Made by a program: the position numbers and the translations under genes. Source: Escherichia coli (GTDB lineage Bacteria > Pseudomonadota > Gammaproteobacteria > Enterobacterales > Enterobacteriaceae). Taken from it: a stretch of 64,000 nt of DNA. The stretch lies in assembly GCF_024700885.2 (NCBI RefSeq), contig NZ_CP117014.1; one strand, written 5' to 3'. Position 1 is the first letter of the stretch, and every line of letters begins with the position of its first letter. The notes under the pieces were generated by a model, which was not told the origin of the DNA, did no database searches, and worked only from the letters and a program-made list of their open reading frames with translations. Positions 8,191 through 61,272 of the stretch are shown here, piece by piece.

Positions 8191-8348
8191 GGTTAAGCCC
8201 TAAATTCGGGCGCGGCGTGAAGGTTCTTTTGACGGGATAACAATACCTACTTTGTGATTTAGTCAATAGGTTTAGTAAAATAAAATCTATTAACACTCAT
8301 GTTGTTATGTGATTTAATTTTAGTTTTCTAACACAAATCATTAGAGTT

Positions 8349-18796: not shown

Positions 18797-18803
18797 TTCT
18801 CAC

Positions 18804-18845
18804 CATTTGTGTTAGAAAATACGCGTTAATTATCTAACACAAATG
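18804..18845. promoter_or_regulatory. operator-like dyad GTTAGA-N16-TCTAAC upstream of rdgC-dmt
   Basis: A perfect 13-bp inverted repeat, CATTTGTGTTAGA (18804-18816) / TCTAACACAAATG (18833-18845), in the intergenic region. Confidence 0.5.
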
Positions 18846-18855
18846 GGTGCATTTT

Positions 18856-30221: not shown

Positions 30222-31148
30222 TTAACTAACAATCCAGTCCATAGCAATAACATCCTCTGGAGCTAAATCAATAGCATGGATTTTCCCGTCACGGATGGTG
30301 CGCCAGTGCTTTCGTGATCCACCTTCGGGCCACACCCATATACCTTCAGGCCAGGAAGAACGACGACACACTGTTGCGTATCCAGTCCTGATCTTCTCTC
30401 TGACGGTATGTAGTGACAGATTATCCTTTGGGCTTTCAGGCACAGGATGGTGGATTGCCTGAAACATCCCCATCTTTGGATGATACCAGCGTTTATTGCG
30501 TGGTTCTGCCTCCGACATCACCTGCTTAAAGGCTTTCCGGAAGGGGGCCAGGGCCACAATGGAGCGTCGCGCAAGCAAACCCTCTGGAGTTAAAAACTCA
30601 TGCGTATCGGTGGGAATCCGGAAAGCGTTAACCAGGTTGCGACATTTGGCTTCAGTCAGGCCACATTTCGCCGCCAGCTGGCGGTAGCCAATGTAACCTT
30701 CCGGCATATTGCCTTTCTTGATTTGCTCGAGTGTTTCAGCGACCATCGATACTTGTGCTGATACCTCGGCTACCTGGGCATTTACGGCGTTGATCCGGCG
30801 TTCATGCTCAAGATGCATTTGCGCCATTTCAGCCAGAATTTCGGCTTTTGATTTTAACTGTACCCGGGCATTCTCCAGTTCGCGCCAGCGGTCCACCAGC
30901 CGGGCGGTGAATTCGGGAGAGAGCTGCGCGACGACGACAATACTATCGCGCTTGCCTTGCTCGCCTTCGAAGACGTAATAGCTCGCCGGGCGGCCTGCGG
31001 TGGGCTTTTCCTCAATTTGAGGAAAAGATATTACGCCCCGTTCCGCCAGGTGTTCAATGGTGCGTTTAACGTTATCAGGGCGCTTACCTACCAGTTCCGC
31101 GATCTCAATGCTGGTCATTGTCGCTTTTTGAGAGATGGACAGATTCAT
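30222..31148 (-). CDS. Rha-family regulatory / antirepressor-like protein
   Basis: The N terminus (MTSIEIAELVGKRPDNVKRTIEHLAERGVISF..) fits Phage_pRha. The position corresponds to P1 ant in immI. Confidence 0.6.
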   Translation of the reverse strand: MNLSISQKATMTSIEIAELVGKRPDNVKRTIEHLAERGVISFPQIEEKPTAGRPASYYVFEGEQGKRDSIVVVAQLSPEFTARLVDRWRELENARVQLKSKAEILAEMAQMHLEHERRINAVNAQVAEVSAQVSMVAETLEQIKKGNMPEGYIGYRQLAAKCGLTEAKCRNLVNAFRIPTDTHEFLTPEGLLARRSIVALAPFRKAFKQVMSEAEPRNKRWYHPKMGMFQAIHHPVPESPKDNLSLHTVREKIRTGYATVCRRSSWPEGIWVWPEGGSRKHWRTIRDGKIHAIDLAPEDVIAMDWIVS

Positions 31149-31363
31149 CAGTGCGCCTCCACGCAGTTCATCGGCAGATTCCAGTAATTGAGGATCTCCA
31201 TCGCATCAAGAGTGAAGCGAGCAGCAAAAATGCAGGGTTCTTCGGGAAGGTATGAGCGCGCCTCTGCTTCGGTAGCAGCCATGACGCAGATATACAGGTG
31301 TTTTTGGCAGGAATAGAAACGCCAGATAAATTCAGAATGAGTTGGGGTAGGGATAGTAGCCAT
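31148..31363 (-). CDS. small protein, position-equivalent to P1 icd
   Basis: 71 aa. RBS aaggagg. Its stop overlaps the antirepressor start (ATGA). The assignment is by synteny only. Confidence 0.4.
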   Translation of the reverse strand: MATIPTPTHSEFIWRFYSCQKHLYICVMAATEAEARSYLPEEPCIFAARFTLDAMEILNYWNLPMNCVEAH

Positions 31364-31384: not shown

Positions 31385-31500
31385 AGTTAAGGAGCTACCG
31401 CGTGAGGTTCCAATCTCAATGGCGGTAGCACTGACTGGGTTGGAACTACCGGCGTCAAAGGGAACCGGCCTGCCTTTCGGCAGCCCAGCCAGCACTACCA
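31385..31500 (-). ncRNA. candidate c4-like antisense/leader RNA of an immI-type operon
   Basis: Structured leader. An 8-bp stem, GCTACCGC (31394-31401) / GCGGTAGC (31422-31429), presents GGTTCCAAT in its loop. The complementary GTTGGAAC lies at 31439-31446, and a second GGTTCCAAT copy at 31594-31602. Confidence 0.25.
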
Positions 31501-31548
31501 TTGATCTCTGAGCTAAACGCTACGTATGGCTGTGCGATGGCATGACAC

Positions 31549-31569
31549 AAAAAAGACGCTTTCGGCGTC
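31549..31569 (-). terminator. rho-independent terminator (minus strand)
   Basis: On the minus strand: GACGC-cgaaa-GCGTC followed by TTTTTT. Confidence 0.6.
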
Positions 31570-31674
31570 TGTGTCGCCTTTGACATTATCCGGGGTTCCA
31601 ATCCCGGCACCCGTTTTTCTAAGGTGCCGTAGAAATATACCCCACGATAATGCTAGGGCGCAACAGTCAGTATT

Positions 31675-31842: not shown

Positions 31843-32173
31843 TTTGACACCCCCGACGCGAGTAAAGAATGCAGATTATCGCGTGAGTGGTGGACGACGA
31901 GTGATGGGAAAAGACTGTAGTTGTTCATAGTGTAGTGACTCCTTGCTTTCGGAGCCGCCATCGACTGTTCCACGGTCTGGTGGCGGCGCAATAAAGGCTG
32001 GAACACCGTGAGTCAACGGGGGCTTTTCAGCCACCTATATTGCACCGCCATAGGTATGACGGCGGCAATAATACGAAAAACTAAACAGTTTGTCTCAAAA
32101 AGTTGACCGGTGTGCCAATCGGTAGTGAATGTACATCGGAGAAATTTACAATTCAACTTAAAATGTTAGAAAA

Positions 32174-32752
32174 CTAATTTATCGATTCAATCGCCATCTG
32201 ATACAACGTCATTTCATCGGCATTGTGCCGTATGAAATCTGCTTTTCCGCCTATTTTTCCATCAGCATGAACAGGGACCAGCCAGGGATATTGTTCTCGG
32301 ACCTCGGCTGGCGCTGCGTACTGGTGGTGCCATTTACACAAAGGGAGGACATATTTATGCGCGTTCTCTGCCGTTCTCCCGAAGATATGGTGCAGGGATA
32401 CCACTGGGCTATGTTGCCCGTGAATATGGCAGGCAATGCAGGGGAGAGTACCTATAGCGGTCTGTATCCGGCGTTCATCGGCTGTGAGTGATCTGCCTTT
32501 CAGGCCGCGTGACGTGCGTGTTTTTTTGGGCGGAGCGGATACAGCTTTATCTTTTCTCCGCTGTTCATATTGCTTTGCTTTTTCATTTTTCTTTTGCCGA
32601 TATTCAGGCGATGCGGCCTTTTCTCTCGCTCGCTGCTGCTGGCGTTGAGCTTGTTGAAGGCGCTTTGCCCTTTGTTCCTCTCGCCAGGCCGGGTCAGCCA
32701 ATTTTTGCATGGCTTTTTGTCTCTGTTTCTCCCAATAACTCTGTTTCTGCAT
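32174..32752 (-). CDS. ref: Ref-type recombination enhancement HNH endonuclease
   Basis: Basic disordered N terminus plus LPCIACHIHG..SLHHI..LPLCKWHHQYAAPAEVREQYPWLVPVHADG. From memory this is very close to P1 Ref. Confidence 0.8.
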   Translation of the reverse strand: MQKQSYWEKQRQKAMQKLADPAWREEQRAKRLQQAQRQQQRAREKAASPEYRQKKNEKAKQYEQRRKDKAVSAPPKKTRTSRGLKGRSLTADERRIQTAIGTLPCIACHIHGQHSPVVSLHHIFGRTAENAHKYVLPLCKWHHQYAAPAEVREQYPWLVPVHADGKIGGKADFIRHNADEMTLYQMAIESIN

Positions 32753-32801
32753 GATGGCAGTCTCTTACTTTTCAACGATTTTTCTATGATTGATCAAAAC
32801 G

Positions 32802-32829
32802 GTTAGATATTCAAAATTGATTTTCTAAC
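32802..32829. promoter_or_regulatory. operator-like dyad GTTAGA-N16-TCTAAC overlapping a TTGATT/TAATAT promoter
   Basis: GTTAGA at 32802-32807 and TCTAAC at 32824-32829. A -35-like TTGATT lies at 32817-32822 and a -10-like TAATAT at 32839-32844. It sits at the head of the plus-strand early block. Confidence 0.5.
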
Positions 32830-32869
32830 ACAAAACATTAATATCATCACTGATAAATGTTTGGAGGAC

Positions 32870-35496: not shown

Positions 35497-35653
35497 CCCA
35501 GGCTCTGCATGAAGTGAATTTATATAGCCGTATTGATGGTTCTGGCTATAGAAACTAGACACGGGCGCGGTTTTTAGCGGAAATCTGACGCTAATGCAGG
35601 TGAAGGGAGGGCAGCTTAAAGTCTGATCAAATCATTTACGCACTCAAAATCAC

Positions 35654-35683
35654 GTTAGAACATTGATTTTAGTTTTCTAACAT
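35654..35683. promoter_or_regulatory. operator-like dyad GTTAGA-N16-TCTAAC containing the TTAGTTTTCTAACA box
   Basis: GTTAGA at 35654-35659 and TCTAAC at 35676-35681. It lies in the intergenic region before the 35725 gene. Confidence 0.5.
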
Positions 35684-35724
35684 ATTATTTTACCGATCGG
35701 AACAAAACAGAGTCGGTATGCATT

Positions 35725-36720
35725 ATGAGTGCAATAATCACCCCATATGTCGTAAATGAAACTGGTGTGGCTGTCTTTCCTGTAGATAAGCCCACCAGCA
35801 ATTACATCGGCGCAGGACGCCGTTTTCTTATATCCCCATTGCCGCGTGAACAGGCTGAAAACACCCCTGATGGTGTCGTTGACCTGAATTATTCACTGGT
35901 TGCCAACCAGTCACTGGCACCCTTTTTTCAAAGTGAGCGCGTATTTAACGCGTTAGGTGGTGAGGATTCTCTCGTTCACTGGGTTAGCACCAACATTCAC
36001 GATTGCCAGGTGCATGATAAGCGCGATTGCAGCCACCAGCTAACCACCCATTTCTATAACGGTTCTGCCGTTCGCCTGTGCTGGAAGCATGATGCGGAAT
36101 ACATGATGAAGGGATACGGCAAGCTGGAAGACCAACTGTCACTGAATCGCGCCAACTGGATTATGAACTGGGCTGCCAGCGAGTTAAAACTTCCGCCAGA
36201 TCGCGATCTGAGCATGGTTGAACTCACCTTTTGGGCCATTCGCCGGAATCTTAAAGACGAACTGCCTGATGAAGCTGGTCGCATTGCATTTTGTCAGCCA
36301 AAAACTGAAATCCCTACCGGCACTCTGAAAGAGTCGGATATTACTTGGGAGCATAGTACCCGCGAGCTGGTGGATATTTCCGCAGAGCAGATCGTCAATC
36401 TGTCCGTCGATGAAGATTCTGGCCTCCTATATATGCGCCGTCCAAAAACCTTACTCGGAAAAAGCCCGGCTTATCTCCGGTTTGTGGTGTCTCGCCCGTG
36501 TGTAGGCTGCGGCGGCAAGGTTAATCACCCATTCATGTACCGCGCCCGCTCGTTAAACGAACACGACCGCTGGACTGTTCCTCTTTGCGATGACTGCGCC
36601 AGAAGCGCAGAAAACGATGTCCGGGCATGGGAAAAAGCACATGGCATACGCCTTTACGTAGCCGCTAACCAGCTTTTCGACTTCGCCATTGAGCGCGGAG
36701 TGATCACGTTCAATAACTGA
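35725..36720 (+). CDS. hypothetical protein with C-terminal Cys-rich (HNH/DUF968-like?) segment
   Basis: 331 aa. The C terminus reads RPCVGCGGKVNHPF..DRWTVPLCDDCARS. Confidence 0.4.
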   Translation: MSAIITPYVVNETGVAVFPVDKPTSNYIGAGRRFLISPLPREQAENTPDGVVDLNYSLVANQSLAPFFQSERVFNALGGEDSLVHWVSTNIHDCQVHDKRDCSHQLTTHFYNGSAVRLCWKHDAEYMMKGYGKLEDQLSLNRANWIMNWAASELKLPPDRDLSMVELTFWAIRRNLKDELPDEAGRIAFCQPKTEIPTGTLKESDITWEHSTRELVDISAEQIVNLSVDEDSGLLYMRRPKTLLGKSPAYLRFVVSRPCVGCGGKVNHPFMYRARSLNEHDRWTVPLCDDCARSAENDVRAWEKAHGIRLYVAANQLFDFAIERGVITFNN

Positions 36721-48927: not shown

Positions 48928-49000
48928 AGCACCCTCCTAAATAGGCGAGGGTACTTTACAGCAAAGGCGTTAATCTAAAAAGATGTGTTAGAAATTTAAT

Positions 49001-50029
49001 TTACGAATCCATCAGGCGGCTATTAGCCCCCACAGACACGCCGCCACGGCGAAGATACCGCATAAGTGTTTCCGGTTTCTTCCAGGTTCCTTCCTGCATG
49101 ATCTCCACCATAGACACCTGCTTTTCAGCCATATCAATAGCGGCCCCGACGCGTGCACTATGCCCGGTCCACGTCCGGTATCTTCCTTTGTTTGGCGTAG
49201 CATCTCTTTTATTCAGCAACACCCAGGCGTCGCTGAATATTTTCTCCATTGCAGGTGCAGTAAGGGGCGTTGTCGTGATCCTGGCCTTATTGCTACGGTG
49301 TATCGGCGGGAACAGCACTGCGTCAGGATGTTCGCGAAGCCCGGAAACATCCAGCCAGTCATTCAGCACAGCGGTAGTGCGACGGGAAAGCACCTTATCA
49401 AGCCCGGCGGCGGTCGTTATTGTCTTCGTGTGTGAAATATGTAGCGTGACAGTGTCACCTGTTTGATCCAGATCTCCTACACGAATACGCGAGATTTCCG
49501 ACATACGCATCAGCGTATTGTATGCAACAAAGAGAAAAGCCCGGTTGCGCAGGTCCACCAGCCGTTCTGACCTGGACAACAGGACGTCGAGCAGTTTCAG
49601 ATCGTCCCACCGAAGCGGTATAGCCTGGCCTGTTCGTTCGCCTTTTTCAGTTGCCGCTTCGCGCCGGATGCGCCGCATAGCCAGAGAAACACTTTTATCA
49701 TCCGAAAGTGGCGGAAGGCCACAATGCGAAAGCAGCATATTCAGCATGGCGTAGTGCTTATCAATGGTGGTCGAAGCCAGATCGGCATCATGCAGCTGAA
49801 GAAAATACTCGCGGGCCATTTCTGGTGAGATCGGAAACCAGGCAAGCTGGCGAGCGTGACACCAGCGCGCCCATGAATGAAACACCAACCGGAGGTCGCG
49901 CAGAGTATTCGGCGCATAAGCCCCCTGGTCATTCATGAACCGCATAAAGTTTTCTGCAGCCTCCTGGTACTCTTTGCCAATGTTGCGCAGAAAACCACCG
50001 GAGCTGCCAGAGATAATTAATTCACTCAT
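49001..50029 (-). CDS. dre: Dre tyrosine site-specific recombinase (Cre family)
   Basis: 342 aa. MSELIISGSSGGFLRNIGKEYQEAAENFMRFMNDQGAYAPNTLRDL... matches my memory of phage D6 Dre. The cognate rox site lies upstream. Confidence 0.9.
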   Translation of the reverse strand: MSELIISGSSGGFLRNIGKEYQEAAENFMRFMNDQGAYAPNTLRDLRLVFHSWARWCHARQLAWFPISPEMAREYFLQLHDADLASTTIDKHYAMLNMLLSHCGLPPLSDDKSVSLAMRRIRREAATEKGERTGQAIPLRWDDLKLLDVLLSRSERLVDLRNRAFLFVAYNTLMRMSEISRIRVGDLDQTGDTVTLHISHTKTITTAAGLDKVLSRRTTAVLNDWLDVSGLREHPDAVLFPPIHRSNKARITTTPLTAPAMEKIFSDAWVLLNKRDATPNKGRYRTWTGHSARVGAAIDMAEKQVSMVEIMQEGTWKKPETLMRYLRRGGVSVGANSRLMDS

Positions 50030-50181: not shown

Positions 50182-50213
50182 TAACTTTAAATAATGCCAA
50201 TTATTTAAAGTTA
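50182..50213. other. rox: rox recombination site
   Basis: Exact TAACTTTAAATAAT-GCCA-ATTATTTAAAGTTA: 14-bp inverted arms around a 4-bp spacer. Confidence 0.9.
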
Positions 50214-50423
50214 TAAAATGCCGATTTTTTTTAATCCATCATAGATTGATGATGACCAGTAACACGTTGCCTTCATGGTCTTTAATTTGCGAAGTGTGGT
50301 TTCTACGGTTGGTTTTCTAAAATTGATGACAAAAAATCACAGTTCGATCCTTTACTCACTCTGTTATTCGACATAAATTTGTCATAGTAATTTTATGTTA
50401 GAAAACTAAATCGAGTAGGAATA

Positions 50424-51461
50424 ATGAGTAAGAAGTCGATCGAGAAAGAGTACAAACGGTTCCTGCAAACCGCTGAACGGTGGAAAGAGCTGGTGGTCGC
50501 AAACTCTGTTTTCCATGATACCAGTTATGCTGGCGAGGAATTCCGCCATGTTGCATTAACGCATGACCAAAACATATTAGAAGAAGCTGAAAAATGTCTT
50601 GCTGAATGGAAAGCCTTCGTTGACATGTGCCGCGATGCCGACGGCAAAGCGTCGAACATTGTTGAGTCTGTATATTCTCCGATCCCATTCATCATTGAGG
50701 ACACCAATCAAAGCACGCATGTCGTTGTGCAAAGCGCTACAACAACACGTACATTTACACGTGAACAATTGCTAAAAAAATACGACAAAATCATAAAGAA
50801 AAGCCTTAAAAATAGGGTTTTTTCTCAAATCGTAGGTGATCTTGAAGAAGAACAGCGCTTCTTTGAAGCTGAGCCTGAAGGCGAGATCTACCGGGCGCGT
50901 AAAGAGGCATATACAGATGTTGTGCTGACAACAAACATCGAAGGCAGCAATGCCCTTTCTCGCTTTAGAGTTGGCGCACATGGTGCATTGGTTTTCGCAA
51001 GACTACCGAAGACAACGATCCCCGTTGTCAATAATGTTGGTGAACGCCGGAGCATTACAATTTATTCTGGCGTCGAATCGGTACCTTGCAGCCTTCTCGG
51101 CGATTTTAACTTATATCGTGTTCGTGACCTGGAAAAACACCAGCCAAGCTATGTTGCGAAGTCGTACATCTTAAGGAACATCGATATTCGCAATGAAAGC
51201 CTTAAGCAGAAATCCGCTAAGATGCTGGAGGATGCCGATCCGGCTATTCGCCATATCATTGAGCGTAAGATACGTACATCACGTGAAGCAATGGCAAGGC
51301 TGGATAAAATGGATCTGGAATTGTTAGACGTAATGATGGCCTCTGGAGACGACCTGACCGGCATTAAACTGAATGAAGCTCGTAAAAAATACGGCAAAGC
51401 AATCGAAGAACGTTACGGATACACATTCCCCCAAACGCAGTACGCCGCGAAGCTCTGGTAA
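50424..51461 (+). CDS. hypothetical protein at the position of P1 c1 (candidate master repressor)
   Basis: 345-aa ORF convergent with pacB, as c1 is in P1. The operator-like box ATGTTAGAAAACTA (50395-50408) lies just upstream. I saw no sequence similarity to P1 C1. Confidence 0.45.
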   Translation: MSKKSIEKEYKRFLQTAERWKELVVANSVFHDTSYAGEEFRHVALTHDQNILEEAEKCLAEWKAFVDMCRDADGKASNIVESVYSPIPFIIEDTNQSTHVVVQSATTTRTFTREQLLKKYDKIIKKSLKNRVFSQIVGDLEEEQRFFEAEPEGEIYRARKEAYTDVVLTTNIEGSNALSRFRVGAHGALVFARLPKTTIPVVNNVGERRSITIYSGVESVPCSLLGDFNLYRVRDLEKHQPSYVAKSYILRNIDIRNESLKQKSAKMLEDADPAIRHIIERKIRTSREAMARLDKMDLELLDVMMASGDDLTGIKLNEARKKYGKAIEERYGYTFPQTQYAAKLW

Positions 51462-52997: not shown

Positions 52998-54361
52998 TAA
53001 TCATCCTCCGGCGGTTCTATCGCGATATCATCATCTCCGGCGTCATACCCTGCATCAGATGCATCATAATCACCGTAAATTTCAGCCGTTGCCGAAGGGT
53101 CAATATCCAGCTCTTCGTCGTTGGCCTCGAATTCTCCAGCTTTACGCTCGCCATTGCGGTCGTAATCTCCGCACCCCAATTCTTCAACAATGGTTGCCAC
53201 ATCCGCCCGGCGCTCTGCCAGCCATTGCGGATGGTTAGCCTGAAGCGTTGCAAACTCCCTTGCCTCTTTGTCCAGCTGTTCATCATCAACATCATTGACG
53301 TCAGAAACAGGTGGTTCGAGAAGAGTGATAGCTTTCGCCGCGCGCGCCGCGAGGATAGCCGGGACGCTGACACCCTGGCGCTCGATGTATTCAGCAACAC
53401 CGATATCATCCAGTTCCTCGCGCTCACGCATACGTATAGCGGCGGCGATAACTCTGGCTGCGCGTGCGTCAGCGCCAATGCGATATTCAATCTCTTTGCC
53501 ACGCTGTTCGGCCTGTAGGCGTGCTAATTCGAGTTTTTCTCTGGCCTCAGCCTCTTTGAATGCTTGCTGGCGAGCGCTCTGACGAAGCTTTTCATCCCCC
53601 TGTCGCAGCTTTTGTTCGGACTGATATATAGCTGCCAACCTACTGATAAAATCATTCATGTAGTAGGCCGCGTCACTGATTAGACCGAGAAGGCGCTGCC
53701 CAGGGTGCATTCCTTCTGGCTCTTTATCGCCCAAGGCGTCTATTTCCGCCTGTAGACGTTCGGCCTCCTGATCAACAATGCTTTGATACTGAAGTGCGCG
53801 CTCTTGCGCCATTTGAATTGCTAACCGCAGGTGTTCTTCTGCGCCGTTCTTCATCATATCGCGAGCCACATTCGTAGTTGGCAATGTGGCACGCTGCACA
53901 GCACCGTCAGGGATCATTGCAGAAGATCCCTCAATTTTTGGGGCGTTTTTATCTTCTTCGGGGATCATTTTCGCCATTTTTTCGCGCAATGATCTCCTGA
54001 CAGATTCTTTTATCTCATTGTTATTATTTGAATTATTTTCATGATCCGAAGTTTTCTTTCTCGGCATACTTCGGAAAGAACCTGCGCCCTGCGAATTGTC
54101 AATTTCTGTAAATTTTGTTTTTTCTGCACCCTCTTCCAGCTTTTTTGTTGCTCTTCCCGCCCGTTTTTTTTCAGGTGATTTGGTGCTTTTTTTTGTTGTC
54201 TTTACCTGCGACCGCACCTCATTTTTTTTCATATTGAGATGCTTTCTGGCTGTATTGAAGCTAAGGCCATGCTCCTCACAGTATTCCTTTACAGTGATCC
54301 CTTTTTCTTCACGCAACGCTATAAAGCGGGCGCGGTGCTCCTCCCAATTAACCAGACTCAT
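52997..54361 (-). CDS. pacA: terminase small/recognition subunit (PacA type)
   Basis: 454 aa. It has an N-terminal HTH-like segment (ITVKEYCEEHGLSFNTARKHL), a basic linker, a coiled middle and a highly acidic C terminus. This is the same layout as P1 PacA. Confidence 0.75.
   Translation of the reverse strand: MSLVNWEEHRARFIALREEKGITVKEYCEEHGLSFNTARKHLNMKKNEVRSQVKTTKKSTKSPEKKRAGRATKKLEEGAEKTKFTEIDNSQGAGSFRSMPRKKTSDHENNSNNNNEIKESVRRSLREKMAKMIPEEDKNAPKIEGSSAMIPDGAVQRATLPTTNVARDMMKNGAEEHLRLAIQMAQERALQYQSIVDQEAERLQAEIDALGDKEPEGMHPGQRLLGLISDAAYYMNDFISRLAAIYQSEQKLRQGDEKLRQSARQQAFKEAEAREKLELARLQAEQRGKEIEYRIGADARAARVIAAAIRMREREELDDIGVAEYIERQGVSVPAILAARAAKAITLLEPPVSDVNDVDDEQLDKEAREFATLQANHPQWLAERRADVATIVEELGCGDYDRNGERKAGEFEANDEELDIDPSATAEIYGDYDASDAGYDAGDDDIAIEPPEDD
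53912..54046. other. pac: candidate pac site: cluster of five GATC-containing hexamers inside pacA
   Basis: GATC occurs at 53912, 53925, 53963, 53991 and 54043. In gene sense the hexamers read GGATCA, AGATCA, TGATCC, GGATCT, TGATCC. P1 pac is built from TGATCA/G hexamers within pacA. Confidence 0.4.
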
Positions 54362-54750
54362 AAAGCAACACCACGCTTTTTAACGGCGGCATTCCACAGC
54401 TTATTCGCCATGTCCACCAGCTCTCGTTGCTCTTTTCGCGCCTGTTCGACTGATTTCCTGCTACAGTTTTTAACCAGTAAACTGCCATATTCAGGGGTTC
54501 GCCCACGCACCTTGAACTGATATCCGTTCAGGCCATGCAACCAGTATTTTCGTGGGTAAACACGATCATCAAGCTCACAGATTGCCCTGCTTGAACGAAC
54601 AAAATGACGAATGATGTTAGTTACACTTACTCGTGAAACATGGAGATGAGGGTATTTTTCTTTGGCGAGAGTGGTAATTTCAGTGACTGTCAGATAGCAG
54701 TCAGCCCTGATCATGATATCCGCAATTTCTGCGCTGCTGATTTGTTCCAT
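54358..54750 (-). CDS. hypothetical protein at the position of P1 lpa (late promoter activator)
   Basis: 130 aa. It overlaps the pacA start and is preceded by an operator-like dyad. The assignment is by synteny only. Confidence 0.4.
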   Translation of the reverse strand: MEQISSAEIADIMIRADCYLTVTEITTLAKEKYPHLHVSRVSVTNIIRHFVRSSRAICELDDRVYPRKYWLHGLNGYQFKVRGRTPEYGSLLVKNCSRKSVEQARKEQRELVDMANKLWNAAVKKRGVAL

Positions 54751-54829
54751 TAATCCCCCGGGCAGGAAATGACCGAGGGGATGATAATGAGAATGTTAAA
54801 ACTGTATAGACTGGTAAAAAGATGAATGT

Positions 54830-54857
54830 ATTAGAAAATTAATACTAAATATCTAAT
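54830..54857. promoter_or_regulatory. operator-like dyad variant ATTAGA-N16-TCTAAT
   Basis: It has the same 16-nt spacing as the GTTAGA/TCTAAC dyads and carries a symmetric G-to-A / C-to-T change in the two half-sites. Confidence 0.45.
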
Positions 54858-54858
54858 G

Positions 54859-55251
54859 CTACCAGCTAGACAAACGAACAACATGTTTCACTTTTGCGAT
54901 CCACTGTCCGCGATAACTATTGATTACGGCCTGTGCCAGCTTCAAATTGGCTTCAAAATCAGCCTTACTACCATCAGACTCCACCAGCATTCCTCCATCT
55001 ATTTCTGGTAAACATAGATAATCCTGCTCAACCTGCAGCGGCATTGATGGCTCTCTGAATGGGGTTACTTGCTCTGCTTTCCAGCGAAATCTAACCCTTA
55101 TCCCCCTGGTGGTCATTACTAGATAGCCTGTTATAGTGCTTTTATGGCCCACATCAGTACGCGTGGCATTGCATGACTCGATCTTACAGTTAGCGATAGA
55201 CCACTCCATATTGGTGGCCTGTTGAGTGCTTAATTTGGTAGTCCCGTACAT
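54859..55251 (-). CDS. hypothetical protein
   Basis: 130-aa ORF. Confidence 0.4.
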   Translation of the reverse strand: MYGTTKLSTQQATNMEWSIANCKIESCNATRTDVGHKSTITGYLVMTTRGIRVRFRWKAEQVTPFREPSMPLQVEQDYLCLPEIDGGMLVESDGSKADFEANLKLAQAVINSYRGQWIAKVKHVVRLSSW

Positions 55252-56096: not shown

Positions 56097-56280
56097 CGCC
56101 GTGCTCTTCCGGCTGTCACACCGAATCGCCAGGATGGTGAATCCGCAGTCCGACGCTATGAACGGGGCTTGCACATTCCGGCTACCTGGTGTGCCCATGC
56201 AGTGTTAGTAAAAGGTACCTAACAGCTACACCAGACCGCTAACGACGCATGTGCCATACGCCGTGTTACAACCAAATGTG

Positions 56281-56356
56281 GTGGCCCCTACCGGACTTGA
56301 ACCGGTGACCGTGCGATTATGAGTCGCCCGCTCTAACCACTGAGCTAAAGGGCCAG
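56281..56356 (-). tRNA. tRNA-Ile2 (anticodon CAU, lysidine type) or Met
   Basis: GGCCCTTTAGCTCAGTGGTTAGAGCGGGCGACTCATAATCGCACGGTCACCGGTTCAAGTCCGGTAGGGGCCACCA forms a cloverleaf. From memory it is close to E. coli ileX. CCA is encoded. Confidence 0.85.
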
Positions 56357-56785
56357 ATTACTGTTAATTACGCTTACGCTTTTTGCCAGAACCGCGTAAG
56401 GCTTTTGCCGCTTGCTCTACCCCGTATGCAACCACCAGCAGAAACAATAATGTCCACTCCGGGTTTTTATCGGCAAACGCCCAAAAATCCATCACTTGCA
56501 GCCACCTTTTAAGACAAAACGCCATTGCTGTTAGGTTGCGGTGCCGGGCGCCTCCCGGTGACGTTAACCAGTTAACAATTAACGCCGGATCACTTATGGA
56601 TTCTCGTTACGCCAGTAAAAAGACCACCTTTACTGTTTTAACTGTTCCGCGTGCGCTTAGCCGCATTCACCGCAATGGTAAGAGCATTTGGCTGACTGGG
56701 CGGCGATGACGCCTGTACGCATTTGGTGATCCGGTTCTGCTTCCGGCATTCGCTTAATTAGCCAAATACCCTTAATGTTGCACTG

Positions 56786-56872
56786 GCGGAGAGTAATGGA
56801 ATCGAACCATCATCGCTTGCGCAATGGGACGGTTTTCAAGACCGCTTGAGCACCATGCTCCCTACTCTCCCG
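56786..56872 (-). tRNA. tRNA-Ser (anticodon UGA), class II with atypical D arm
   Basis: Acceptor GGAGAGT/ACTCTCC, discriminator G and CCA. Anticodon stem-loop GCGGT-CTTGAAA-ACCGT. Long variable arm and T arm GATGG-TTCGATT-CCATT. The D arm (GAGC-ATGGT-GCTC) lacks the GG. Confidence 0.65.
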
Positions 56873-57002
56873 TTATTGTGGCGACCGGTGCTGATCTCCG
56901 GCTTGCGGTTATTTCAGACTCTCACGGGCGTTTAATTGCCCCGCCGAACAGCTCTTTTCCGCAATAGCTGCAATGTCTTTCGCGCATCAGCCTGCGCATT
57001 CA

Positions 57003-57102
57003 CCACAATGTTGAGAACACTGGTTGTCACGCTGCAACGCAACATTTATTCGTAGATTGGGATATGACCCCGTTACGCCAGTGTTCTCAACGTTGTAGTG
57101 CC
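57003..57102. repeat. box-hairpin element B
   Basis: CACCACAATGTTGAGAACACTGG / CCAGTGTTCTCAACGTTGTAGTG: 23 positions (21 Watson-Crick pairs, 1 GU, 1 mismatch) with a 54-nt loop. Confidence 0.55.
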
Positions 57103-57238
57103 GGTTACGGTTCCGGCCAGACCTCTTCCTCAACGGGGTGTTCTCCATACGGACTACCGTTTATTGGTCGTTCCTGCGGTTTATGTTGTGAAGCCAGATG
57201 CTTATCTTCTGGTTGCTTCAAAGAGCTGCACTTCATCA

Positions 57239-57325
57239 CAACGGTAAGAGCATTTATGGCTCGCATCGCGGGAAAAAGCCCACGGTAGAGAGTCGAACTC
57301 TACAAATGCTCTTACCTGTTGTGTT
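57239..57325. repeat. box-hairpin element C containing a T-arm-like hairpin; abuts the tRNA-Thr 3' end
   Basis: The outer stem is CACAACGGTAAGAGCATTT / AAATGCTCTTACCTGTTGTG (19 bp, 1 bulge). On the minus strand the inner region reads GTAGAG-TTCGACT-CTCTAC, then CGTGGG-CTTTTT-CCCGCG. Confidence 0.55.
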
Positions 57326-57326
57326 G

Positions 57327-57402
57327 GTGCCGGTTAACGGGATCGAACCGCTGACCATTCGCTTACAAAGCGACTGCTCTACCAACTGAGCTAAACCGGC
57401 AA
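57327..57402 (-). tRNA. tRNA-Thr (anticodon UGU)
   Basis: GCCGGTTTAGCTCAGTTGGTAGAGCAGTCGCTTTGTAAGCGAATGGTCAGCGGTTCGATCCCGTTAACCGGCACCA; the anticodon loop is TTTGTAA. Confidence 0.85.
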
Positions 57403-57406
57403 TTTG

Positions 57407-57493
57407 GTGGGGAGTGATGGAGTCGAACCACCCGAGTCGCAATGACAGTAGATTTACAGTCTACCCCGCTACCCCTACGGACTAACTCCCCTA
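57407..57493 (-). tRNA. tRNA-Tyr (anticodon GUA), class II
   Basis: GGGGAGT...GTAGA-CTGTAAA-TCTAC, a long variable arm, T arm GGTGG-TTCGACT-CCATC, acceptor 3' strand ACTCCCC, discriminator A and CCA. Confidence 0.8.
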
Positions 57494-57498
57494 AATTG

Positions 57499-57575
57499 GC
57501 GATGGTGGGTGGATTCGAACCACCTACCGAAAGCTTAGAAGGCTGCTGTTCTATCCTACTGAGCTACACCATCAC
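57499..57575 (-). tRNA. tRNA-Arg (anticodon UCU)
   Basis: Acceptor GATGGTG/CACCATC, discriminator G and CCA. The anticodon loop is CTTCTAA and the T arm GGTGG-TTCGAAT-CCACC. Both the anticodon stem and the D stem contain mismatches. Confidence 0.7.
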
Positions 57576-58439: not shown

Positions 58440-58667
58440 GATGTGCATTGATGATTAGATGCAGCATGTACCGTTACTCTCTGCCGGACCATCATCAATG
58501 AACACCTTAAAAAGACCTTCCGTGGCTCAACATGTATTGTCGTTTACTCCGCAAAGTGCTCTCTCTGAAACCACTTTCCGCACTAAACCTGCTGAACTTT
58601 GGCCTGCACGGTGCCAAAGCGTGCTCTTGCATTACTATACATTTCTAACACTTTAATTTGTTAAATG

Positions 58668-58741: not shown

Positions 58742-58808
58742 GAAAATTCTATGTTAAGTTATCTTCACAATCAATACATTCGAATTGTGATTTTAGATTT
58801 CTAACACA

Positions 58809-60017
58809 TTATTTCCCATAAAGATCTTCTACACCCCCATTCTTCTTATCCCATTCGTTCGCCCATACCCGGCAAGCGTCAATGATTTCCTGACGACGAT
58901 CTCCTTGCATGAACGGGATGCTTTCATGGAAACAGCTTGGAATGCAGGCCACACTGAATACAGTATCAAACTCCGTCTGCTTGATTGCCTCCAGCGTCTC
59001 CGGACGCATTTTTAATTCATCGATTGGCGCATCCTTAGAGTCCATAATCCGGCGATATAAGCGCGGAAAATCCGTCTCCAGATACGCCATAATTTTATCT
59101 GCGAGACATTCGTCTATGTCGGTATTCCAGTCCTTTTCGAAGCCCGGCAGGCGATAGTAAAGCGGCGTTCCCCATACCGATGGGATCACATCCATCGTTA
59201 ACAGGCGATTGGTTCTGATTTGTTGATGGTAATTAGCCGTCAGCAGTGCTTCGCCACGCTGCCCAGTTTCCGCAACCAGGCCGTGCGGATACTCATGGAT
59301 GTAGGCAATGGCATCCCTTCCATCATACATAAGTGGAAATGTCTCTGGTCTTTGTCCCATGCCACAAGCACGGTTCAGATCGTGACCAAGCTGTGAGCAC
59401 TCTCGCTTTAATGTTTCGATAATGCTCTGCGCTGTAGCCAACTTTTTACGCAGTGTGACGCCTTCGCCTTGATAATCAATGCATTGCTGATTGAGCTTGG
59501 TTAAACGCTCTTTTAGTTCCCGGCGCTCTCTTTTCAGCGTGCGGTTATCCTTCTCCGCAACATCCAGCCGCTTTGTCAGGCTTGGCGGATAGTCTTTTTT
59601 GTAACGGTTCAAATCGGCTTCGGCAGATTTACGCAGTGTATTTGCCTGTTCAAGACGCGCTTCCAGATTGCCGATCTCATTACGCATATTCGCGGCAAAT
59701 TGATTAACTGCATCACCCAGGCTTTCAACTGTCGCTGATACGCCTGTGACTTGTGAAAAACGGATCAAGCCATCATTAACTGCTTGTTGGTATTCCTCAA
59801 ACTGATCCACCAGCTTATTGTAATCAACTGCCCCATCATCAAGCAGCTTGTTGATTTCCGCCACCAGGTTATCTGTAGTGGCAATGACACTCTCGTGCAG
59901 TCGCTTTGACAGGTCATCACCCGGATTCCGTTTCTGTATAAGAGCGATTTGTGTGCGCAGCGTTTCAATTGCTGTCGAGATAATTTCCAGATTAGAAGTA
60001 TCAGTGTGTTGACTCAT
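58809..60017 (-). CDS. hypothetical protein, N-terminal coiled coil
   Basis: 402-aa ORF. Operator-like boxes lie on both sides (58791-58809 and 60041-60056). Confidence 0.45.
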   Translation of the reverse strand: MSQHTDTSNLEIISTAIETLRTQIALIQKRNPGDDLSKRLHESVIATTDNLVAEINKLLDDGAVDYNKLVDQFEEYQQAVNDGLIRFSQVTGVSATVESLGDAVNQFAANMRNEIGNLEARLEQANTLRKSAEADLNRYKKDYPPSLTKRLDVAEKDNRTLKRERRELKERLTKLNQQCIDYQGEGVTLRKKLATAQSIIETLKRECSQLGHDLNRACGMGQRPETFPLMYDGRDAIAYIHEYPHGLVAETGQRGEALLTANYHQQIRTNRLLTMDVIPSVWGTPLYYRLPGFEKDWNTDIDECLADKIMAYLETDFPRLYRRIMDSKDAPIDELKMRPETLEAIKQTEFDTVFSVACIPSCFHESIPFMQGDRRQEIIDACRVWANEWDKKNGGVEDLYGK

Positions 60018-60096
60018 TGCTATTCCCGTTACTTTGTTAAATTATTTTTCTAACATATTTTATTAGTTTGATGACAGTATCGAAAGATGCAATAAA

Positions 60097-60641: not shown

Positions 60642-61136
60642 TTAATCAAGACAAACATACTCCGTGATAGCTTTTATGGCTTCAGCGGCACTGCGCGCCT
60701 CAAAGCAGTAGTAACCGGCTTCTGTGAGGCGAGTCATCCAGACGAGTTGTTCGGGAGTCAGGCGATTTCTCCCATGTTTCATCTCAATGCGCATTCCGTG
60801 GTATCCCCCACAAGCAAGGTCTATAGAAAGATCGGGATATCCCTTCTTTTGGCCCTCTGCCACCATTTTTATTGCCGTCCTTATGCCTCGCAGGCCACCG
60901 TTTGGAGTGGCGTGAGTATGCTCATACACATAACGCATATTGCGATACATCCAGTCCAGGACGCGAACCTGCTCGTAATGCTCATGGTTCCTTTTGATTA
61001 GATCTGGGTTTTTCTCCAGTTCTCTAAGAGCTGCGGCATGTGGGGATGTTTCAGAATATTCACTGCGACGCCTTCTCTTTCGCGCTATTTTTCTAACACA
61101 CCCATTGATAGTAAATATGCGAAATAATAACAACAA
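60642..61136 (-). CDS. VRR-NUC domain nuclease
   Basis: ATPNGGLRG..KKGYPDLSIDL..GMRIEMKHGRNRLTPEQLVWMTRLTEAGYYCFEARSAAEA fits VRR-NUC. The true start is probably internal, because an operator-like box (61086-61099) lies within the 5' end of the track ORF. Confidence 0.6.
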   Translation of the reverse strand: MLLLFRIFTINGCVRKIARKRRRRSEYSETSPHAAALRELEKNPDLIKRNHEHYEQVRVLDWMYRNMRYVYEHTHATPNGGLRGIRTAIKMVAEGQKKGYPDLSIDLACGGYHGMRIEMKHGRNRLTPEQLVWMTRLTEAGYYCFEARSAAEAIKAITEYVCLD

Positions 61137-61272
61137 CGTTAGATTTGTAAAACAAGAGAGATACTACTCAAGGATGGTCTATATGCAACAGGTCGGATTT
61201 GCTTTTAGAGTAAAGAGTGACCTTAATCAACAAGGAGGGTAAATCGCATGGCATTTACCCAACCTGTTATTT

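Follow-up and report, generated by a model that had tools for sequence, protein, structure and literature searches.

A scattered TCTAA-core motif as the probable operator set of the D6-type C1 repressor in a P1-related plasmid prophage of Escherichia coli

We analyzed a stretch of 64,000 nucleotides (nt) of Escherichia coli contig NZ_CP117014.1 (hereafter the window), a D6-like plasmid prophage of the P1 supercluster, in which a preliminary description had noted a recurrent operator-like motif and proposed a P1-like regulon of scattered sites under a master repressor. More than 10 dispersed sites bearing this motif were found, essentially all of them in non-coding DNA both in the window and in Escherichia phage D6 (MF356679), compared with approximately one expected. 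The enriched sites lay before the orthologues of operons that carry P1 operators and before the repressor gene c1, and were specific to this type of C1, in agreement with the proposed regulon. We proposed, with a probability of roughly 0.85, that the motif constitutes the operator set of the D6-type C1 repressor encoded at 50424-51461. This reading is carried by the enrichment and intergenic placement of the sites, the fixed geometry of their pairs, their conservation and positional orthology with P1 operators, the mutual exclusivity of the two operator types, and the homology of the repressors; from these observations we infer physical binding by C1, repression, cooperativity, and the assignment of promoters.

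Approximately 50 kb of the window aligned to D6 with 94-99% identity (megablast, blastn), with some accessory regions swapped relative to D6. The rox site, which is position 1 of D6, lies at window position 50198, and the open reading frame at 50424-51461 is D6 gene 1, annotated as 'prophage repressor, similar to P1 C1'; the gap between rox and c1 is only 226 bp. Every site found in the window was also present at the matching position of D6, in whose deposited record no operators are annotated. In the literature, we found no relevant description of the motif string or of D6-like operators, and an earlier description of a D6 operator may nevertheless exist.

Exact matches to GTTAGA-N16-TCTAAC were located at 18811, 32802, and 35654, compared with none expected from 100 shuffles, and the variant ATTAGA-N16-TCTAAT was located at 54830, so that the four inverted hexamer pairs first reported were all recovered. 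The 14-mer TTAGTTTTCTAACA was likewise present in four exact copies (8320-8333 and 35669-35682 on the plus strand, 32164-32177 and 50396-50409 on the minus strand), three of which had originally been placed one base too high, and 12 copies were found with at most two mismatches, versus 0.42 expected. Alignment of the sites yielded an asymmetric motif of approximately 20 nt, AaaTTAgTTTTCTAACAcA / AaaTTAgTTTTCTAACAcAa, in which TCTAA was invariant, the flanking T-run and C-A were strong, and the upstream ATTA was weaker. The core TTTCTAACA was near-invariant, and with the weaker ATTA element 5 bp upstream it would form a unit of approximately 17-20 bp.

The sites were scored with a fixed position weight matrix (PWM) built from 16 window sites, with leave-one-out scoring and a hit threshold of at least 14 bits; it replaced an iteratively refined matrix that had drifted to AT-rich coding matches. 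This PWM was asymmetric, with its information distributed over approximately 17-19 positions, and 8 of the 12 loci carried single copies, some sites having a partial internal palindrome TTAG-N4-CTAA. At the threshold, 17 matches were obtained in the window versus 0.8 in shuffles, and 17 in the complete D6 genome versus 1.3 expected. The near-copies previously listed at approximately 48985, 58643, 58791, 60041, and 61086 were all among the PWM matches. Strong sites scored 21-26 bits in the leave-one-out test and the weaker dyad partners 9-14 bits. All strong sites of the window fell within its non-coding fraction of approximately 10%, and the D6 matches above 12 bits all fell within the non-coding 10.5% of D6, with a single exception located within pmgM. 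For the 33 kb of D6 without an equivalent in the window, the window-trained PWM detected exactly two matches, both intergenic: one of 28.1 bits between repL and a second icd-antirepressor operon, upstream of the latter, and one of 17.1 bits upstream of repL. These two sites occupy the positions of P1 Oc4 and OrepL.

The same motif emerged from a model-free search of intergenic DNA for over-represented 8-mers, in which words of the motif ranked at the top (GTTAGAAA, 9 of 12 copies intergenic, p=2e-7). When applied to P1 as a positive control, the screen recovered the known C1 operator words, which validated the approach. The sites catalogued in the window, together with the presumed repressor gene, are as follows.

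18807-18842: putative divalent operator, half-sites 18807-18826 (minus strand) and 18823-18842 (plus strand), 14.1 and 21.5 bits, 11 nt upstream of the hrdC(rdgC)-dcm-dam operon (ATG 18796, minus strand).
32798-32833: putative divalent operator, 10.2 and 24.2 bits, separating the minus-strand gene ref (start 32752) from the plus-strand early block.
35650-35685: putative divalent operator, 9.2 and 25.3 bits, upstream of a pdcB-like (DUF968) gene with its ATG at 35725.
54826-54861: putative divalent operator of the ATTAGA-N16-TCTAAT form, 22.5 and 13.7 bits, upstream of lpa (54358-54750, minus strand).
8317-8336, plus strand: putative single operator, 26.3 bits, flanked by the minus-strand major capsid gene 23 and the plus-strand orf52 (ATG 8349).
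32161-32180, minus strand: putative single operator, 23.9 bits, at the head of the immI-like operon.
48983-49002, minus strand: putative single operator, 26.1 bits, between the stop of dre (a Cre-like recombinase gene) and the orf117-orf116-dut-orf114-isaA operon.
50393-50412, minus strand: putative proximal c1 operator, 23.5 bits, 11 nt ahead of the c1 start codon and presumably autoregulatory.
50306-50325, plus strand: putative distal c1 operator, degenerate (TTGGTTTTCTAAAA), only 7.5 bits, upstream of c1.
58634-58653, plus strand: putative single operator, 15.5 bits, between pmgS and the minus-strand tRNA/tciAB cluster.
58790-58809, plus strand: putative single operator, 25.3 bits, adjoining the pmgS stop codon.
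60039-60058, plus strand: putative single operator, 23.8 bits, 21 nt before minus-strand pmgS, which starts at 60017.
61082-61101 and 61136-61155, plus strand: two putative operators at the head of pmgM, 15.8 bits, the D6 copy of the second scoring 15.1 bits.
50424-51461, plus strand: c1, encoding the 345-aa D6-type C1 repressor, the presumed binder of the motif.

We compared this arrangement with that of P1, for which 22 C1 operators with an asymmetric 17-bp consensus have been described (PMC8546580), taking the operator list from the annotated record AF234172 and the P1/P7 operator consensus as ATTGCTCTAATAAATTT. In both elements, more than 12 operators (those of the window being predicted, and apparently asymmetric like those of P1) are scattered before orthologous operons. 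In particular, P1 Odmt corresponds to 18807-18842 before hrdC-dcm-dam, Oref to 32798-32833 at ref and the divergent early operon, Oc4 to 32161-32180 at the immI-like operon, Olpa to 54826-54861 at lpa, and the operators upstream of P1 c1 to 50306-50325 and 50393-50412. The P1 Oban-tRNA-tci-ban layout is matched by the sites at 58634 and 58790, which accompany five minus-strand tRNA genes and tciAB, and OpmgRa/b, O26, and Oppp are matched by the sites at 60039, 61082, and 61136 (pmgS, pmgM). The dut-isaA operon with its site at 48983 resembles the Ossb-ssb-isaA arrangement of P1. The sites before orf52 (8317) and pdcB (35650-35685) are without an annotated P1 counterpart. Early operons had been put forward as the targets; this applies to some of the sites, but others flank pmgS, pmgM, and the tRNA cluster, as P1 operators also do.

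The two operator types were found to be mutually exclusive. A PWM built from 15 annotated P1 operators gave, at 14 bits or more, 21 matches in P1 but none in the window and none in D6, and the D6-type PWM gave one match in P1 at the same threshold versus 1.0 expected; moreover, neither of the two window copies of the P1 word GCTCTAAT was intergenic. Since neither PWM finds sites in the other genome, we predicted that the window and D6 on the one hand and P1 on the other are heteroimmune. The window sites fail the P1/P7 operator consensus, which points to a system of the P1 kind whose specificity has changed. The flanks differ (TGCTCTAATAAA in P1 versus TTTCTAACA here), as originally claimed for the sequence as a whole, but both operators contain a TCTAA core, and both systems have a 28-bp divalent operator form. 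Outside this core, when the D6 and P1 operator consensus sequences were aligned by hand, alternative registers matched similar numbers of positions. The contrast first drawn between dyad-symmetric sites here and asymmetric sites in P1 was overstated, because P1 has the divalent palindromic Obanab and most window loci carry a single copy of a unit that itself appears asymmetric; the pair geometry does differ, however. Obanab, the sole annotated divalent operator of P1, is a 28-bp palindrome with a convergent N6 arrangement and cores 12 bp apart, whereas the window pairs are divergent, with N16 and cores 22 bp apart.

The repressor itself is homologous to that of P1. The 50424-51461 product showed 21% identity to P1 C1 over 268 aa, occupies the syntenic position, and matched P1 c1 in tblastn with E=2e-6; as in P1, its gene lies beside pacB and the recombination (lox-type) site. 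Its protein cluster and homologues carry PF27008 (Phage_P7_repressor_C1). An exhaustive HMMER search of 1.84 billion proteins with the D6-type profile detected only 83 cluster representatives, including the representative of the cluster of P1 C1 (P0082, 53% identical to P1 C1; E=4e-6). Sequence searches with C1 of PHROGs, the PDB, and a copy of Pfam that lacked PF27008 were uninformative. P1 C1 has 283 aa, whereas D6-type C1 has 345 aa with a helical C-terminal extension: the conserved part comprises residues ~5-245, followed in the D6 type by approximately 100 further helical residues.

The rest of the immunity apparatus was only partly recognizable. P1 Lxc and Coi, used as queries, gave nothing meaningful in tblastn searches of the window or D6 (the Coi query was the 69-aa open reading frame upstream of P1 c1, taken as Coi), and Lxc was likewise undetected in a D6-like plasmid (PMC6799933). 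An immI-type antisense control of the antirepressor is present, as indicated by a C4 antisense RNA (31418-31505; Rfam RF01695, 77 bits) and an isrK-like RNA (RF01394, 63 bits) that lie side by side within 31418-31627, upstream of icd (31148-31363) and the antirepressor gene (30222-31148), all on the minus strand. On our reading, the element has the immunity design of P1 with a different operator sequence and pair geometry, and without recognizable Lxc or Coi.

In relatives whose C1 proteins are 68%, 51%, and 44% identical to that of the window, TCTAACA / TTTCTAACA was kept at orthologous loci and N16 dyads recurred. The first of these is the Salmonella Typhi plasmid pK91 (NZ_CP029965), a conjugative IncFIB multiresistance plasmid that retains only a fragment of a D6-like prophage with c1 (68% identity), dre, the dut operon, and phd-doc. 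Both sites of this fragment were kept, one upstream of c1 (25.6 bits, at the same distance from the ATG) and one upstream of the dut operon. The other two are assembled contigs, L008 (51%) and L009 (44%), in which TTTTCTAACA was found at several orthologous places: upstream of c1, lpa, the dut operon, and pmg-region genes in L008, and upstream of c1, lpa, the operon following the recombinase gene, and pdcB in L009. An N16 dyad was present at a different locus in L008, and a pair with an offset of 16 at lpa in L009; the orthologous site before the pdcB (DUF968) gene of L009 scored 28 bits. With respect to individual sites, the one at 8317 was conserved in D6 at 54201, the proximal c1 site was kept in the relatives with 68% and 51% C1 identity, and the distal c1 site contained TTTTCTAA, invariant across four relatives, with the full TTTTCTAACA in L008 and L009. 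TCTAA at the lpa locus, which encodes the late-promoter activator, was also invariant across four aligned relatives.

A different sequence was found where C1 was more distant. In Leclercia plasmid pE1_003 and Citrobacter plasmid pCfr13-1, whose C1 proteins show approximately 30% identity, the window motif was replaced by TTCTAAGG. The most enriched intergenic words of these plasmids were ATTCTAAG and CCTTAGAA, with a consensus of approximately wATTCTAAGGcttt at orthologous positions, among them those before c1 and those separating the end of the recombinase gene from the operon that follows; presumably, a third immunity type uses this consensus as its operator. At the recombinase-stop/dut locus, the alignment of six elements showed an invariant TCTAA followed by CA in the D6 clade and by GG in Leclercia and Citrobacter, the orthologue of the 48983 site being kept in pK91, L008, and L009 and TCTAAGG taking its place in the Leclercia and Citrobacter plasmids. 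When P1 with its GCTCTAAT was included, three C1 clades shared the TCTAA core and differed in its flanks.

The paired sites followed a fixed geometry. Among inverted RTTAGA...TCTAAY pairs within 60 nt, N16 occurred four times and the sole other divergent pair was at N52. The cores of the four dyads are 22 bp apart, approximately two helical turns, and therefore face the same side of the helix; so constant a spacing points to a structural constraint, for example, a protein-protein contact. The C-terminal extension of D6-type C1 was considered as the cause of the dyads and was unsupported. Around 18807-18842, the inverted repeat noted earlier was confirmed, although it is slightly longer than the 13 bp given for it, with 18-nt arms (18803-18820 and 18829-18846), 94% complementarity, and a perfect outer part of 14 bp.

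Several sites were associated with promoter-like sequences. The right half of 32798-32833 falls in the spacer of TTGATT(32817)-16-TAATAT(32839), the promoter-like pair first noted at this dyad, which is present in the sequence but matches only 8 of 12 consensus positions and lies under the threshold of the promoter tool. The site at 35650-35685 overlaps TTGATT(35663)-17-TATTTT(35686). In a looser scan, the cores at 32814, 35666, and 48983 were located in the spacers of weak sigma-70-like promoters pointing in the same direction as the motif. At c1, pmgS, and pmgM, where motif and gene run in opposite directions, the motif would be placed after the likely start point but ahead of the ribosome-binding site. 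A promoter-like TTTACT-17-TAAATT (50351-50379), conserved in relatives, precedes c1 and is bracketed by the two sites, which are approximately 85 bp apart. The 58790 site is just upstream of a minus-strand promoter-like TTGATT(58774)-17-TAGAAT(58751) that faces the tRNA cluster, and the 61082 and 61136 sites flank a minus-strand promoter-like TTTACA(61151)-16-TATTAT(61129).

A structural model of C1 bears on the asymmetry of the motif. From a 61-sequence alignment, AlphaFold2 gave a model with a mean predicted local distance difference test (pLDDT) of 94.9 and a predicted template modeling score (pTM) of 0.81; a 9-sequence alignment had given a poor model (pLDDT 70) whose fold matches were mostly helical-bundle noise. 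The only significant Foldseek matches of the better model were four Tus entries (E 1e-7 to 3e-6, probability 1.0, TM-score 0.39-0.45), the next match having E 0.4. We thus predicted for residues ~1-245 of D6-type C1 a Tus-like two-domain alpha/beta DNA-binding fold. No sequence similarity between C1 and Tus was detectable, and no paper linking the two was found in the literature searched. Both Tus, at its asymmetric Ter site, and P1 C1 act as monomers on DNA sites that lack symmetry and are approximately 17-23 bp long; the predicted structure would therefore fit an asymmetric operator unit. The analogy with Tus-Ter is limited by TM-scores of only 0.39-0.45 and by function, C1 being a transcriptional repressor of many sites with nothing to suggest replication fork arrest. 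The same regulatory logic, one repressor with many dispersed asymmetric sites, some of them downstream of promoters, is known from the 'stoperators' of gp71 in mycobacteriophages L5/L1; this is an analogy only, as the site sequence and the host phylum differ from those of the D6 type and gp71 belongs to an unrelated protein family of the helix-turn-helix type. Multiple asymmetric operators have been described in mycobacteriophage L1 (PMC1934351).

Several observations weigh against assigning the sites to C1. The strong 8317 site has no counterpart in P1, several half-sites are poor (9-14 bits), and the distal c1 site reaches only 7.5 bits. Nor do the sites keep a constant orientation to the genes that they would regulate, all five of those at 58.6-61.2 kb being antiparallel to the genes there. 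A strict sigma-70 consensus scan was negative for promoters both at 32.7-32.9 kb and in front of c1; because of this, and because the looser scan gave only weak candidates, the promoter overlaps are tentative. N16 dyads are absent from the loci of the Leclercia and Citrobacter plasmids, although the C1 proteins of these plasmids also have the C-terminal extension. In addition, the co-variation of sites with the C1 clade is confounded: all genes of these genomes diverge together, and co-variation alone therefore does not single out C1. C1 is singled out by the site in front of c1 and by the orthology with P1 operators.

An alternative is binding by another phage regulator, with candidates such as a protein of the Xre/HigA type, a repressor other than C1, or a factor associated with the antirepressor. 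C1 binding is itself something that we infer, clade co-variation would be expected for any regulator on these genomes, and several small proteins of the DNA-binding type are encoded, for example, the HigA-like genes annotated in D6. We nevertheless considered this explanation improbable, since the sites are located at the same promoters as the P1 C1 operators and before c1, and the motif shares its TCTAA core with the P1 operator. Moreover, the prophage fragment on pK91, with c1, dre, and the dut operon, has kept both of its sites. Among the candidate binders, the late-promoter activator Lpa was rejected: the P1 box at -22 is AAGTGACTT, and a P1-type box, AAGTGACT, is separately present in the window.

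A cis-element unrelated to repression, either a conserved part of a promoter core or spacer or a sequence recognized by a nucleoid or architectural protein of the host, would accord with the AT-richness of the motif and with its overlap, at several loci, with -35-like hexamers (TTGATT, TTAAAT) and its position in promoter spacers. It is less probable still, because the motif occurs in mixed orientation to genes and at four loci as inverted pairs of fixed spacing, and because some sites lie downstream of the likely start point, by ribosome-binding sites (c1, pmgS). Furthermore, P1 shares the host and is without enrichment of the motif, and the variable base after TCTAA follows the phage clade rather than the host. 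Finally, recurrence by chance or as a composition artefact was given almost no weight. The intergenic DNA is indeed AT-rich, and weak half-sites of 7-12 bits occur at shuffle-level frequency; however, three exact N16 pairs were seen versus none expected and, at the 14-bit threshold, 17 matches versus 0.8, the sites have been retained in relatives whose surrounding sequence has diverged, and the out-of-sample prediction for D6 was borne out. Between them, the shuffles and the conservation across genomes have in effect already refuted this explanation.

If C1 is the binder, as we favor, it would in a lysogen occupy approximately 17 sites at the 12 window loci, and two more in D6 (repL and the second icd-ant operon), these sites overlapping sigma-70 promoters or lying just downstream of them. 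It would thereby silence lpa, c4-icd-ant, ref with the adjacent early operon, pdcB, and hrdC-dcm-dam, as well as the dut operon, the tRNA/tci cluster, pmgS, and pmgM, and c1 would be autoregulated via two sites bracketing its own promoter. The inverted N16 pairs at four promoters should let two C1 molecules bind together, giving tighter repression. Specificity would be set by the bases around TCTAA: C-A in the D6 type, G-G in Leclercia/Citrobacter, and T-A preceded by GC in P1/P7. A broader proposal, to which we would give even odds, is that the C1 proteins of the P1 supercluster (approximately 80 clusters at 50% identity) are Tus-fold monomers that clamp asymmetric operators with a common TCTAA core, that immunity is determined by two to three bases on each side (GC..T in P1, TT..CA in D6, AT..GG in Leclercia/Citrobacter), and that the D6 clade has its own divergent N16 geometry.

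Additional features were observed around the catalogued sites. A second word, TGTGATTT, was enriched in intergenic DNA (6 of 10 copies; 8253, 8308, 22099, 26312, and 58786 on the plus strand, 50341 on the minus strand), and its copies at 8308 and 58786 adjoin operator sites. The five tRNA genes (Met, Ser, Thr, Tyr, and Arg; ARAGORN) all lie on the minus strand at 56279-57573; the D6 record has three tRNAs in the matching region, annotated on the plus strand. The annotated TTG start of pmgM (60642-61136, minus strand) overlaps one operator and leaves the second within the 5' part of the annotated coding region. A more plausible start is a GTG near 61062 that follows AGAGAAGG; with it, both operators would be upstream of the gene. 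In the 5' leader of lpa (54751-54795, minus strand), a conserved hairpin, CCCCTCGG-(loop)-CCCGGGGG, directly precedes the start codon and shows compensatory changes in relatives (CCTCCGG/CCGGAGG in L008); this hairpin could mask the ribosome-binding site for the late activator. In L009 (a Logan SRR12267734 contig), the word AAGTGTGA/CTTCACAC was enriched in intergenic DNA (5 of 5 copies) and may be a variant of the late-promoter box.

D6-like phage-plasmids are frequent in E. coli and Salmonella, and some plasmids that bear the repressor have resistance genes; C1 variants were found in 148 plasmid records, in discrete identity classes (tblastn). The repressor gene on the resistance plasmid pK91 could give immunity to related phage-plasmids. 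A defined operator consensus allows annotation of the lysogeny regulon, prediction of immunity among phage-plasmids, and the design of reporters or de-repressible vectors. The general picture of P1-type immunity is unchanged by these findings, and the layout is that expected for a relative of P1. The three-way comparison suggests, however, that immunity shifts via few flanking bases around a constant TCTAA core, and, if this flank code is true, the D6-type, Leclercia-type, and P1 C1 proteins would each favor their own variant (TCTAACA, TCTAAGG, and GCTCTAATA, respectively). P1 C1 has long been described as a monomer on asymmetric 17-bp operators, and the Tus-like prediction provides a concrete structural hypothesis for DNA recognition by C1; if true, it would offer the first structural rationale for this monomeric asymmetric binding, together with a testable heteroimmunity code. 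Taken together, the pattern of a TCTAA core with variable flanks and the Tus-like fold are the parts of this work that most deserve follow-up.

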